Below are positions 1 to 63,411 of a stretch of DNA of 64,000 nucleotides, piece after piece. The notes under the pieces were generated by a model that was not told where the DNA came from, did no database searches, and was given only the letters and a program-made list of their open reading frames with translations. Every line of letters starts with the position of its first letter. Position 1 is the stretch's first letter. The position numbers and the translations under genes are program-made. The stretch is from a virus. The DNA lies in the IMG/VR virus record IMGVR_UViG_3300045141_000199, positions 1 to 64,000 of that record; one strand, 5' to 3'.

Positions 1-76
1 AAACGCCTGTGGTACGAAGCTCTGCCCCTAATGGCAGGCCAGGCTTAGCGCCAGCGACGTTGCTAAAGTTCACTAA

Positions 77-274
77 ATGGCAATCGAAAAGCAGCCAACC
101 AAGGAACGTAAAAGGGTGTATTTGAGCCCAACTGGCCCCAAAAAGGTCGGCGTTTTGCCGGCCGCGGTGGCCGGACCGACCCGGCCGGTCAAAAAGAACG
201 CCTCCGGAGGCACCAAGAGCCGCCAGATGGCCCGTCCGGCGCAGGGCCGCCCGAACTTGCAATCCACGATCTAA
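77..274 (+). CDS. small basic hypothetical protein (probably leaderless)
   Basis: 65-aa K/R-rich ORF; TGc-TAAAGT extended -10 lies 7 nt before the ATG. Confidence 0.45.
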   Translation: MAIEKQPTKERKRVYLSPTGPKKVGVLPAAVAGPTRPVKKNASGGTKSRQMARPAQGRPNLQSTI

Positions 275-292
275 GGCCGCTATACTGCGAGG

Positions 293-451
293 ATGGAGCT
301 TTTCGTCCTCATCCTCTACTACTGCGTAATCGCCGTCTGCGCCCTGTTTGTGGCAGCTTTGGTTGCGTCCGTCTACTTGATCGTTGCCATCCTCGGCGGG
401 CTCTGGTACCTTGTGGAGCGCGTGAGGGGAAAGACCCCGGCCGCAGACTGA
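293..451 (+). CDS. small membrane protein (52 aa)
   Basis: Hand-translated MELFVLILYYCVIAVCALFVAALVASVYLIVAILGGLWYL...; TATACT 6 nt upstream of the ATG. Confidence 0.55.
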   Translation: MELFVLILYYCVIAVCALFVAALVASVYLIVAILGGLWYLVERVRGKTPAAD

Positions 452-696
452 CGGGGATTCAGGTGCGGCCGGGGCGCTTCTGCTAGGCTGGTCGATGACC
501 GGCTCTGGTCGAAACGCTAGGAACGCCGTCGAGGGCAACTTCGGCGGCGTTCTGCTAGTCTGGCGGGGCGCCGCTCGCCTCCGTGGCTCACAGGCAGGGA
601 CGGGCGGCGCTGTGGTAACGCGTCTAGGTCCCTCAGAGCCCCGCCGGTCGTGGTCTTCCTTCCAGCATGATCGGCGGGGCTCTGCTATGCTGTAGC

Positions 697-768
697 GGTC
701 CTCCTCCTTTCCGAAGGACAAGCAGCCAGAAAGGCCCGCCCTCCTCATCCCGAGGGCGGGCCTTATTT
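697..768 (+). ncRNA. predicted small RNA carrying anti-Shine-Dalgarno sequence
   Basis: TGc-TATGCT -10 at 683-691; CCTCCTTTC at 703-711 mostly in the loop of a GTCCT/AGGAC hairpin; ends in a 13-bp terminator-like hairpin 731-764. Confidence 0.5.
731..768 (+). terminator. intrinsic terminator-like hairpin
   Basis: aaggcccgccctc / gagggcgggcctt stem followed by attt. Confidence 0.65.
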
Positions 769-786
769 CTGCTACGATCGCCGCCG

Positions 787-1176
787 ATGGCGACGAACAA
801 TCAGCTCGTACGCAAGGGGCGCAAGGCCAAGCACCGGAAAGTCAAGCGGCCTGCGCTGGAAGGCGCTCCGCAGAAGCGCGGCGTCTGCATGCGCGTGTAC
901 GTCATCAAACCGCGCAAGCCGAACTCGGCCTTGCGGAAGGTCGCTCGCGTGCGCCTGGTCAACGGCATGGAGGTAACGGCCGCCGTACCTGGCGAGGGCC
1001 ACAACCTACAGGAGCACTCCGTAGTTCTGTTGAGGGGCGGAAGCGTGCCCGATCTCGGCGGAGTGAACTACAAGGTAATCCGCGGCGTGCTCGATTGCGC
1101 TGGCGTCGCCGATCGCGAGCAGTCGCGCTCGAAGTACGGTAAGAAGAAAGACGAGGCGCGCAAGAAAAAGCGGTGA
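787..1176 (+). CDS. rpsL: 30S ribosomal protein S12 (uS12), divergent phage-borne copy
   Basis: [10 protein letters not shown]...PQKRGVC...[13 protein letters not shown]...[10 protein letters not shown]...RSKYG is colinear with S12; start placed at ATG 787, 8 nt after TGc-TACGAT. Confidence 0.96.
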
Positions 1177-1201
1177 CAGACGGGAGCGTAGAATCGCTCC
1201 C

Positions 1202-2563
1202 ATGCGATTGAAGCGAATCATCGCAGTCATTGCAGGATGTGTCGCCTTCTCGGCAGGCACAGCTCAAGCGGCGGTCCCTGGGCCAGCTCTTTCCGCTGAA
1301 GGCCACTCTTTGAAATGGACGGCCGTAGCTAGCGCTACCCAATATAAGCTCTACGGCTCGTACGAAAATCAGCACGTCGCGTACGTGATCTCGGGCTTAT
1401 CGGCCACACCAAGTGAAATTGTCGGCCAATCCGTGCGCTGGAAAGTCAAAGCAATGGCGCCGGCCGTATCGCGTTGGTCTAATACAGTAACGATCGCTTA
1501 TTCTGAAGGCGAAAGCCAGAAAGAAAAAGAAGAACGCGAAGCTAAAGAAAAAGCTGAACGCGAACAGAAAGAACGTGAAGAAAGAGAACTGAAAGAAAAA
1601 ATCGAACGGGAAGAACGCGAAGCTAAAGAAAAAGAAGAACGAGAAAAAGAACAGACCGGCGAAGCTGGCAAGGTGAAAAACCGCTTAGATGCCAGAACGG
1701 AATACGATGGTATCCCGGTCGAATGGTTTCAGAAACTTACTAGATTATTAGCCTACCCAACGGCCGGCGACCGCTATCCGAAAGCCGGCGTTGAAACCGT
1801 TGCTTATCACGACGCATGGACGACCTGGGGCTCAAGCGGCGCTACTCATAAGAGTGAATACGTAGCCTGGGTTCACCGTGATAAGGAAATCGGCAAATAC
1901 GCCGGCCAATTCATGGACGATATCAACTATGGGCCTAGCGCTGGCAATAAGGCCGGAACGGACGCCCAATACCGTGAATTAGTCGAAGCCGTTCGAGCTG
2001 AGTTAGGGCCGGCCGGCATAATTGAGATGAACTCTCAATACGCCGATATCTGGCCGCAAATCAAGGCTAAAAACCCTGATGTGCTAAAAGCCCTTGAATA
2101 TGTCAATGTTGTTACTAAGGAGTTTAACGTTGATGCCACGTCAGGCATTAACAGCTCTGATAGATACCGAGAATTCATGGAATTCACTGATTTCCTAGAG
2201 AGCAAAAAAATTGGCATTACGATGTCGGGTGACTCGAATCATAATGGCAGCGCCGAACGTGAGTACAGTTTGGCAACTTACTACTTAGTGAATGACGGAC
2301 TAGACTATATCGGATTTGCTAAACAGTCACCATCGAGCCAGTATCCAGGATTACTGCTCAACATCGGCAACGCAACCAGTCCACGCGAACGCTCATCTAG
2401 TGGTGTCTGGAAACGTAGCTTCGCTAAAGGCGTTGCTTACACTGTTGAGCCGGGCGCAGCAACTCAGACGATAACCCTAGCTAAACCAATGAAAAGGCTA
2501 GACGGCACCACAGTTAGCAGCGTAACGTTGGCCCCCGCTAACGGCGCCGTGCTACAATTCTAA
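1202..2563 (+). CDS. secreted protein with E/K coiled-coil linker and putative glycoside hydrolase (GHL15-like TIM barrel) domain
   Basis: Signal peptide ending AQA; EKEERE repeats; FMDDIN and WKRSFAKGV motifs resemble GHL15-type proteins (family recalled, not searched). Confidence 0.55.
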   Translation: MRLKRIIAVIAGCVAFSAGTAQAAVPGPALSAEGHSLKWTAVASATQYKLYGSYENQHVAYVISGLSATPSEIVGQSVRWKVKAMAPAVSRWSNTVTIAYSEGESQKEKEEREAKEKAEREQKEREERELKEKIEREEREAKEKEEREKEQTGEAGKVKNRLDARTEYDGIPVEWFQKLTRLLAYPTAGDRYPKAGVETVAYHDAWTTWGSSGATHKSEYVAWVHRDKEIGKYAGQFMDDINYGPSAGNKAGTDAQYRELVEAVRAELGPAGIIEMNSQYADIWPQIKAKNPDVLKALEYVNVVTKEFNVDATSGINSSDRYREFMEFTDFLESKKIGITMSGDSNHNGSAEREYSLATYYLVNDGLDYIGFAKQSPSSQYPGLLLNIGNATSPRERSSSGVWKRSFAKGVAYTVEPGAATQTITLAKPMKRLDGTTVSSVTLAPANGAVLQF

Positions 2564-2565
2564 GC

Positions 2566-2855
2566 ACAAGCAGCCCCAGCGACGATGGCTAAGCAACAGC
2601 TTAGAGGAAGTTCGGGGCACCCCCTATAGGGAAACCTATAGGTTCACAGGCCGGCGGGAGTTAGTAACCTAAACGTTAGAACCGCGAGCGCGCCGCACGG
2701 CGCAGTTGCCAAGGCTGGGTGCGATCCCAAAACAGGCACCTAAGGTTCGCTAGGGTGACTAAGGTAGGGAGCGGTACTCCGTTGGGAGGCGCGGCCGACG
2801 GCCGCAGATAGATCATCGTCTAAAACAGAACCCCGGCTATGCTGGGGCTGCTTGT
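2566..2855 (+). ncRNA. rnpB: RNase P RNA (compact variant)
   Basis: Perfect 15-bp P1 (2566-2580/2841-2855); P2 gacgatg/catcgtc; P3; CR-I GAGGAAGTTCGGGGCAC pairs with CR-V ACAGAACCCCGGCTAT to form P4 with bulged U; P15 with GGTA motif; AGATAGAT CR-IV. Confidence 0.93.
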
Positions 2856-2867
2856 AATATAAGGTAA

Positions 2868-3194
2868 ATGGCGAACCTCGTAGTCAAGCTAAATGACACC
2901 TACCCTCCTGTAGAAGCGACTCTAGAATCAACCGTTAGCGGGTCGCTGGCGCCAATCGATTTAACTCCCGCTACCTCGATCTTCTTTATTATGAAGCTGG
3001 GCGTAGTAAAAATCAAGGAATTAGCTACGGTTATCGATGCTGTAAACGGCAAGGTACAGTATAAATGGAAAGCTGGGGATACTTCCACAGTAGGCATCTA
3101 TCGCGTTGAGTGGGAGATACACTGGACCGGCGGCATCGAGACGATCCCTAACGAAGGCTACGATACGATCGAAATTCAGGAAGACCTTGGCTAA
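2868..3194 (+). CDS. BppU-like baseplate/virion Ig-fold protein
   Basis: VKLNDTYP...GKVQYKWKAGDT...EWEIHW...TIPNEGY pattern typical of BppU N-terminal domains. Confidence 0.65.
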   Translation: MANLVVKLNDTYPPVEATLESTVSGSLAPIDLTPATSIFFIMKLGVVKIKELATVIDAVNGKVQYKWKAGDTSTVGIYRVEWEIHWTGGIETIPNEGYDTIEIQEDLG

Positions 3195-43121: not shown

Positions 43122-43178
43122 GACTTTGTAAAGCTTCCTTGTCAAGTACGGCAGAAAGGAGGCGATCCATATCTCGGA

Positions 43179-62697: not shown

Positions 62698-63411
62698 ATG
62701 GACTCCGATGCGGCCCTTTCACCACTAGACGCTCAAACAGCTAATACCCGCGTTGGCTCGGTAGAAAACAGGCTATCCGACAGCGACCGCCTAGCCAAAA
62801 TCGAGGCGGCGTTGGCCGCCCATGCCGCCATCTTCGCCGAGCGCGAAAAGGCCGAGCAGCAGGCTCAAACTGAGCGCCAGTTGGCGGCCGCGGCCGTCCA
62901 GCAGGCCCTTCAAGAGGCTGCGAGCGCTAGCGCTAAGGCCCTGGAAGCAGCGCTAAAAAACGCTAACGAGCTGGAGCTTGAGCGTGTTGCCCGCGTCCGC
63001 GATGAGGTAAAGGAGGTCAAGGACGCCTCGACAAAGCTGGTCAACGAGCGCCAAACAGCCCAGCAGAAGTTCGAGGAAAACGTCAAAGAGCGCTTCGCTC
63101 AGGTCAACGAGTTTCGTGGTTCTCTGGATGACTTAGGCAAATCTATGGGTACCCGCCGCGAACTAGAACAAGCCGTGGACGCCCAAAGATTATCGGCCGC
63201 TACCCTGGCTAAGGAAATCTCCGCGCTGCGCAGCCGAATAGATGTAGGCCCGGAGGACTTACGAGCCTTACAGTCAAAGTCAGACGAATCGTCCGGGAAG
63301 GATGCCGGCGAGGCCAGCCGCCGGGCTCTGCGAGCAGTTTCTGTGGCTATTGTCTCTGCGGGGGTCGCTGGGGTCGCAGTCATTGTGGCGATCGTCCAAG
63401 CGCTTCACTAG
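62698..63411 (+). CDS. coiled-coil protein with C-terminal membrane anchor
   Basis: TAAAAT 7 nt before ATG 62698; hydrophobic C-terminus. Confidence 0.7.
   Translation: MDSDAALSPLDAQTANTRVGSVENRLSDSDRLAKIEAALAAHAAIFAEREKAEQQAQTERQLAAAAVQQALQEAASASAKALEAALKNANELELERVARVRDEVKEVKDASTKLVNERQTAQQKFEENVKERFAQVNEFRGSLDDLGKSMGTRRELEQAVDAQRLSAATLAKEISALRSRIDVGPEDLRALQSKSDESSGKDAGEASRRALRAVSVAIVSAGVAGVAVIVAIVQALH

Follow-up and report, generated by a model that had tools for sequence, protein, structure and literature searches.

What is encoded in the short G+C-rich interval that separates an upstream operon from a virus-borne gene for ribosomal protein S12? The question is raised by a 64,000-nucleotide (nt) stretch of DNA (the window), the first 64 kb of the 89,773-bp single-contig virus record IMGVR_UViG_3300045141_000199, whose source is a soil metagenome. 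Directly 5' of the complete rpsL gene (787–1176, + strand; 129 amino acids, aa) lies a non-coding array of 335 nt (452–786, 67% G+C). Its last module, 72 nt long, had been flagged in an earlier note as a decoy RNA that copies the 3' tail of 16S ribosomal RNA (rRNA) and masks Shine-Dalgarno (SD) sites. The reading favoured here, to which we assign a probability of about 0.45, is that the array encodes small RNA, in a single form or in several nested ones, that acts in trans by pairing with purine-rich ribosome-binding sites.

The elements by which the flagged module was defined are read directly in the + strand. The extended −10-like box TGCTATGCT, here called P3, occupies 683–691, with an expected transcription start at G697/G698, and is followed by the 23-mer GGTCCTCCTCCTTTCCGAAGGAC (697–719), which includes CCTCCTTTC at 703–711. 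The corresponding hairpin, SL2 (698–719), has a stem of 5 bp (698–702/715–719) and a 12-nt loop with CCUCCUUUC at 703–711. Further downstream, the predicted intrinsic terminator SL3 (731–768) comprises a 13-bp stem with ten G-C pairs (731–743/752–764), an 8-nt loop (744–751, CUCAUCCC) and a U-rich tail (TTATTTCT / ATTTCTGCTA), that is, the combination of G+C-rich stem-loop and U tract by which such terminators are recognized. The CCUCCUC attributed to this stem-loop is present as CCTCCTC at 740–746 and straddles the stem (four letters) and the loop (three). No ATG, GTG or TTG occurs on the + strand within 697–768. On the − strand, the SD-like run GGAGGAGG has no start codon at a usable distance, the first ATG being found about 30 nt further on (667–669), and the long − strand open reading frames (ORFs) lie across from + strand genes for which a relative has conserved counterparts. 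The description of a compact promoter-to-terminator unit devoid of coding potential is borne out by the sequence; the unit is not self-standing, since it closes a larger array on the 3' side and this array holds three further promoters.

The likeness of the loops to the 16S tail, also put forward in the earlier note, holds for part of that tail. The 16-mer GGATCACCTCCTTTCT, given there as the actinobacterial 16S end, is found once each in two of five Actinomycetota genomes, both times at the end of the small-subunit (SSU) rRNA match; because it sits at these ends, the SL2 loop can be recognized as nine consecutive letters of the 16S tail. The hairpin that presents this motif has only 5 bp and a low stability of about −6 kcal/mol. 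When folded on its own, SL2 prefers the open-loop form (−6.1 to −6.4 vs −3.5 to −4.0 for its rival), in agreement with the placement of the motif in a hairpin loop; in the full RNA the loop is open only for some 5' ends, with a probability of 0.82–0.96 when transcription begins at 692–695 or 698. The fold of 694–775 is markedly stable (z = −5.2; 0 of 200 shuffles equally stable), mostly through the contribution of the terminator. Across the loops of the last three hairpins, 27 of 33 letters are pyrimidines, compared with 52.5% in the region (binomial 4.6e-4, post hoc). The enrichment is confined to these hairpins, the corresponding counts being 7/20 for hairpin A and 1/4 for hairpin B, described below. 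Genome-wide, CCTCC occurs 104 times on the + strand vs about 125 expected, so that its clustering alone is unremarkable.

The array as a whole is strongly structured (fold z = −6.3) and consists of four tandem units (435–778), in each of which a G+C-rich hairpin is immediately followed by TCTGCTAnnnT; all of its features lie on the + strand. Hairpin A (435–474) has 10 bp (435–444/465–474) and a 20-nt loop, spans the stop codon of a 52-aa membrane ORF and precedes the extended −10-like box P1 (TGCTAGGCT, 481–489). Hairpin B (521–552; 14 bp, GCAA loop) stands directly 5' of P2 (TGCTAGTCT, 553–561), whose expected start is at about 567–568. SL1 (634–684) has 19 bp and a 13-nt loop (653–665) with CUUCCUUCC and an unpaired probability of 0.60–1.00. 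The SL3 terminator ends 2 nt 5' of P4 (TGCTACGAT, 770–778) and 19 nt 5' of the rpsL ATG, and P4 is only 8 nt from this ATG, so rpsL is probably leaderless or nearly so. Units A, B and C have their 3' arm and box in common (CGGCGG..TCTGCTA..CTG in the unit alignment), a pattern resembling threefold duplication of a terminator-promoter cassette 5' of rpsL. The last 141 nt (628–768) form the three hairpins with pyrimidine-rich loops. A 66-aa ORF (495–695) starts 5 nt after the P1 box, as leaderless genes do; it is G/R/A-rich, has no PHROG match, and is unlikely to be coding because it crosses two strong hairpins.

The promoter type proposed for these boxes is real in this phage, being enriched outside ORFs and placed before gene starts. 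All four matches to TCTGCTAnnnT in the window fall within 479–778 (at 479, 551, 681 and 768). Over the genome, the shorter TGCTAnnnT occurs 26 times: ORF interiors (73.3 kb) account for 12 of these sites and the remaining 16.5 kb for 14, giving densities of 0.08 and 0.42 per kb, respectively, a difference of approximately 5-fold. The motif stands 5' of the tRNA arrays and of the RNase P RNA gene, and 6–8 nt 5' of many start codons, including that of rpsL. In the first 2,268 nt, seven TGnTAnnnT sites are found vs 1.9 expected, six of them on the + strand. The boxes of the array conform to TGnTAnnnT and would therefore belong to this extended −10 class. On the − strand no extended −10 was found near the element, the sole one in 2.3 kb being at 1917–1925, and a separate − strand scan for a promoter at the element also found none.

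Only the last hairpin, SL3, carries a U tract, which is lacking in A, B and SL1; hence the most plausible 3' end for RNAs started at P1, P2 and P3 alike is near 768. From the positions of the boxes we infer transcription and the 5' ends, and the array would accordingly most likely give rise to a single small RNA or to several nested ones, of approximately 72 nt (from P3), 200 nt (P2) and 275 nt (P1), all ending at the single proper terminator at 731–768. The last three hairpins would present pyrimidine-rich sequences resembling the anti-SD tail. The RNA may then act in trans, pairing with purine-rich ribosome-binding sites on host or phage mRNAs and blocking 30S binding, as do the alpha-r14/cuckoo RNAs (NfeR1, CcsR1–4) and other small RNAs with C/U-rich loops.

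The design of the element does resemble that of experimentally studied anti-SD small RNAs (RF02344; PMC10746234, PMC4615179). The one Rfam match of note, and by far the best at relaxed thresholds, is to the alpha-r14/'cuckoo' family RF02344, which matches 628–768 over the full model with 37.0 bits, its gathering cut-off being 58.8. The E-value is 4.6e-5 for 1 kb searched against all 4227 families; over 361 nt it is 1.7e-5, and with the phage genome 9.9e-7. In the alignment, SL1, SL2 and SL3 fall on the three hairpins of the model, SL1 on the first, with SL1 and SL3 fitting well. The cuckoo motif CCUCCUCCC has no exact copy here and is matched in 7–8 of its nine letters at 655, 700 and 743: CUUCCUUCC in the SL1 loop agrees in 7/9, CCUCCUCCU (700–708, SL2) in 8/9 with its first three letters in the stem, and CCUCAUCCC (743–751, SL3) in 8/9 with its first letter in the stem. 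Weaker matches were given by two families of like design, CcsR1 (RF02791, 19.4 bits; cut-off 65.3) and sX13 (RF02232, 22.2 bits; cut-off 50). At gathering level, the window contains tRNA matches only (n = 27) and no family at the element. A tRNA-like identity of the element was considered and rejected.

Cuckoo/alpha-r14 RNAs comprise two to four adjacent hairpins with CCUCCUCCC in each loop and are described only from Alphaproteobacteria (PMC4615179, PMC10746234, PMC8034643). NfeR1 and CcsR1–4 silence mRNAs by covering the ribosome-binding site (PMC10746234, PMC4615179), and in NfeR1 three motifs do so redundantly, with the ribosome-binding site occluded (PMC10746234). The element shares with them the adjacent hairpins without a multiloop, the last of which is the terminator (SL1, SL2, then SL3 at 731–764 plus U tract), the tandem units, and a CU-rich anti-SD-type motif, imperfectly reproduced, in or next to the hairpin loops. 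It differs in being phage-borne, whereas cuckoo occurs in Rhizobiales and Rhodobacteraceae among the Alphaproteobacteria, and in having a promoter box per unit where the bacterial RNAs arise by RNase E processing of an untranslated region (UTR) (PMC8034643). CcsR derives from the UTR of a DUF1127 gene; the ORFs next to the element have no PHROG match (Pfam was not scanned for DUF1127). The published cuckoo matcher sets size limits (hairpin 24–50 nt, loop 9–27 nt, a minimum helix of 6 bp, a linker no longer than 10 nt; PMC4615179), several of which are also departed from: the hairpins measure 51, 22 and 34 nt, with loops of 13, 12 and 8 nt on helices of 19, 5 and 13 bp, and the two linkers are 13 and 11 nt long.

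Since the RF02344 match lies below the cut-off, the element resembles the family in design and is not a member of it; the likeness could equally well stem from convergence or from distant homology. Convergence among RNAs with C/U-rich loops has been argued for in PMC4615179, which also names sX13 reminiscent of cuckoo. The element is like sX13 of Xanthomonadaceae in having several hairpins with C-rich loops (weak match at 662–768, 22.2 bits); the hosts are unrelated, so this likeness most likely reflects convergence. It is also like the 6C (B11) RNA of Actinobacteria, the phylum nearest to the phage S12, whose C-rich-loop hairpins bind multiple mRNAs (PMC6486639), and unlike it in that the loops are CU-mixed rather than runs of C and that the Rfam list at E ≤ 10 contains no 6C match.

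Background searches place the RF02344 score in context. At E ≤ 1e-4 the family was found in none of 14 control genomes, and at E ≤ 0.01 in none of five Actinomycetota genomes. Among 151 Actinomycetota genomes, three gave hits, at 38.5, 30.6 and 30.5 bits. Two of these loci, L215 (1501–1613; 38.5 bits) and L217 (1501–1612, − strand; 30.5 bits), contain two hairpins with C-rich loops and a terminator and are small-RNA-like; in the third sub-threshold hit, L216, the motif is found in the terminator loop only. As the three match no Rfam family at gathering level, they cannot be called 6C, a family we take to be RF01066. The large genome searches score no more than a few dozen candidates in each genome and the intended positive control, discussed below, failed, so their background counts are weak.

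As regards targets, SD-type complementarity was scored within 22 nt of the start in a crude call of 134 phage ORFs with unrefined starts. In this call, complementarity to the tail reaches 5 nt or more in 46 of the 134 and 4 nt only in 33; 17 are leaderless-like and 38 have none. The SD-led ORFs include capsid-region and structural genes, replication genes and early-operon genes, and a global mask would consequently hit the phage too. The proposal of a decoy that masks host SD sites and spares leaderless phage mRNAs is not supported by these counts, and SL2 as a selective masker has no phage target beyond chance. The SL1 loop (653–665) has a 10-nt perfect complement, GGAAGGAAGA, over the ribosome-binding site (81266–81290, − strand) of a membrane-like 222-aa ORF (80597–81265, − strand, full genome); 32 of 2000 loop shuffles are as good, a marginal result given that three loops were tested. 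Genome-wide duplex scanning, whose energies look inflated and are not relied on, gave no SL2 or SL3 hit at a translation start.

The exact 9-nt complement of the SL2 loop, GAAAGGAGG, is found at 43154–43162 (+ strand), inside a gene-less 'super-SD' 5' of the late-operon terminator. Over both strands of the 89.8-kb genome it occurs twice, in the super-SD and in the antisense of the element itself; by chance a 9-mer of this kind would turn up about 0.7 times, and the match is therefore not significant on its own. The super-SD could be a partner of SL2, forming a sponge-and-RNA pair, or both could simply relate to the 16S tail. A more elaborate scheme, in which the phage would carry a three-part kit for re-tuning initiation (its own S12, a tail-copying RNA masking SD-led mRNAs while leaderless phage genes continue to be translated, and the super-SD at 43154–43169 as a late sponge switching this RNA off), appears highly improbable.

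In the viral and metagenome collections scanned, no homologue of the element came to light. A portal search, with both a single sequence and an alignment, returned one relative only, the genome G001, whose portal is 63% identical and which is syntenic over most of its length. The whole module is lacking in G001 together with rpsL. The array, rpsL and the 453-aa ORF being all lacking there, the block 452–2563 is an indel relative to G001. G001 does have the 65-aa ORF and, judged by position and reading only, with no alignment match, a small membrane ORF. In place of the block it carries two T-arm-like fragments (GGTTCGAATCCCTCC and GGCTCGAATCCCTCTC, about 63,100–63,250), which follow this membrane ORF and precede the region of the RNase P RNA; ARAGORN calls neither of them as a tRNA.

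An S12-based scan of viral contigs gave two loci, both AT-rich and with unrelated upstream sequence, and no relatives were found with the neighbouring 453-aa and 566-aa proteins as queries. A back-translated S12 peptide had no hits in metagenomes. Scanning for two CU motifs with a gap yielded at least 5 viral and at least 117 metagenome stretches; among those listed, all are low-complexity or coding, with blastn likeness to the element never beyond 13–17 nt. The upstream regions of the 80 nearest bacterial rpsL loci have no similarity to the array, and blastn of 1–3000 against GenBank phages matched only a 171-nt rpsL core. Contigs of the source DNA run cover 1–3000 without differences, and no variant of 452–786 is seen among them.

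Several observations weigh against a trans-acting RNA of this kind. The RF02344 score remains under the cut-off, and SL2 is the worst-fitting part of that alignment, where only the motif agrees (low posterior, non-standard pairs). In the intended positive control, which covered 81 genomes from the class to which a Rhodospirillales metagenome-assembled genome (MAG) belongs, none exceeded the cut-off, four scoring 32–36 bits. For 5' ends at 696, 697 or 699 the open-loop probability of SL2 is only 0.07–0.10, as a rival stem (705–709/714–718) then pairs half of the motif. The longest phage complement of SL2 is 8 nt, equalled or beaten by 997 of 2000 shuffles, and the same test for SL3 is at chance (212/2000 as good). 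Hairpins A, B and SL1 have no U tracts, and the upstream units may not be discrete RNAs. G001 has neither rpsL nor an alpha-r14-like match. No RNA run holding the stretch is listed, its sole holder being the source soil DNA run.

A passive terminator/promoter stack is a serious rival, although we regard it as rather unlikely. Here, stacked terminators or RNA-stability elements would close the upstream operon, duplicated promoter cassettes would feed rpsL, and the CU loops would be incidental in a GC-rich spacer. This is consistent with the appearance of units A–C as a tandem cassette duplication, with the mere 5 bp of SL2, with a CCTCC frequency that is not raised genome-wide, with the at-chance target tests for SL2 and SL3 and the lack of conservation in G001, and with the whole block being an indel relative to that genome and G+C-rich like rpsL. 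However, products halted after 60–275 nt at a strong terminator do not feed rpsL, which has P4 as its own promoter, and an incidental origin of the loops fits poorly with pyrimidine enrichment confined to the last three hairpins and with a full-length, three-hairpin RF02344 match at E about 1e-5. The array could also act in cis as an rpsL leader or attenuator, conditional readthrough of 731–768 from P1–P3, for example in response to S12 or ribosome supply, adding a leadered rpsL mRNA. Ribosomal-protein genes often carry structured autoregulatory leaders, the terminator lies between P3 and P4 at the short distances given above, and array and rpsL are both high in G+C and jointly lacking in G001. 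This explanation is nevertheless improbable: in the absence of an SD at rpsL, initiation on a leadered mRNA would be poorly served; no antiterminator pairing is seen, the predicted readthrough fold leaving the terminator intact; ribosomal-protein leader families are absent from the Rfam list even at E ≤ 10; and nothing similar precedes the 80 nearest bacterial S12 genes.

The model of the earlier note, a stoichiometric mimic of the 16S tail that masks SD sites globally, turning off SD-led host translation and favouring leaderless phage mRNAs, we likewise hold to be doubtful. The nine tail letters in the SL2 loop, as they occur in Actinomycetota, the adjacent phage S12 gene and the leaderless-type starts (17/134 in the crude call, rpsL and its neighbours included) speak for it, and there is precedent for cutting SD/anti-SD pairing (PMC12274833). 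Yet with 46 of 134 ORFs bearing SD-type complementarity of at least 5 nt the phage would hit itself, and titration requires an excess of the RNA over all SD sites. The SL2 motif is half paired for some 5' ends, and G001 has the same leaderless layout without this RNA. Moreover, the studied anti-SD RNAs act on subsets of mRNAs (PMC10746234), while the choice between global and specific action is left open in PMC4615179. Finally, the functional strand might be the minus strand, where the loops read GGAAGGAAG, GGAAAGGAGG and GGGAUGAG and their GGA-rich sequence could serve as a sponge for a CsrA/Rsm-type protein, or a small protein might be encoded (ORF 495–695, or an in-frame extension from 667), P1 lying 5 nt before the ATG at 495. 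Either would be very surprising, given that the minus strand has no extended −10 nearby and yields only noise in Rfam, and that the ORFs are G/R/A-rich, cross hairpins of 14–19 bp and match no family.

The genomic setting provides some indication of the hosts involved. The phage DNA has 54% G+C, compared with 67% in the array and 63% in rpsL, and contains 32 tRNA genes. Its capsid and portal have distant relatives only (<30% identity), mostly in phages of Gram-positive hosts. The nearest bacterial S12 genes, at 73–74% identity, belong to Thermoleophilia and other Actinomycetota MAGs, and a 96% identical S12 is encoded on an 88-kb contig representing a much closer relative of the phage. The actinobacterial host implied in the earlier note is only weakly indicated by the bacterial S12 genes. 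Together, S12, capsid and portal affinities point weakly to Gram-positive or actinobacterial hosts, not to Alphaproteobacteria.

Upstream of the array, the operon comprises ORFs at 77–451, including the 52-aa membrane ORF (293–451). Downstream of rpsL, the 453-aa ORF has a −10-like TAGAAT 7 nt 5' of its ATG, enclosed as the loop sequence by a perfect 7-bp stem (GGGAGCG/CGCTCCC; hairpin 1179–1201); this promoter could be sensitive to DNA or RNA structure. Elsewhere, the early-operon genes (full genome 86,600–89,300, − strand) have in common an unusual ribosome-binding site, AGAAAGGGTGAG, whose complement is the last stretch of the 16S tail, at its very 3' end (CCUUUCU), and not the CCUCC core.

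RNAs with anti-SD loops are a kind known from bacteria; its phage-borne setting, beside rpsL and within a stack of promoters, makes the present candidate a new variation on that kind. In the open-access literature, the phage small RNAs described pair with particular targets, and tail-mimicking ones were not found (PMC12197685). Trans action and its targets we infer from the loops and from the bacterial precedents. Should the RNA be expressed and target ribosome-binding sites, the array would represent a phage-borne version of the bacterial anti-SD small RNAs. If true, it would offer a handle on how a phage biases SD-led versus leaderless initiation, in a setting that combines a phage S12 gene with a genome of largely leaderless mRNAs.

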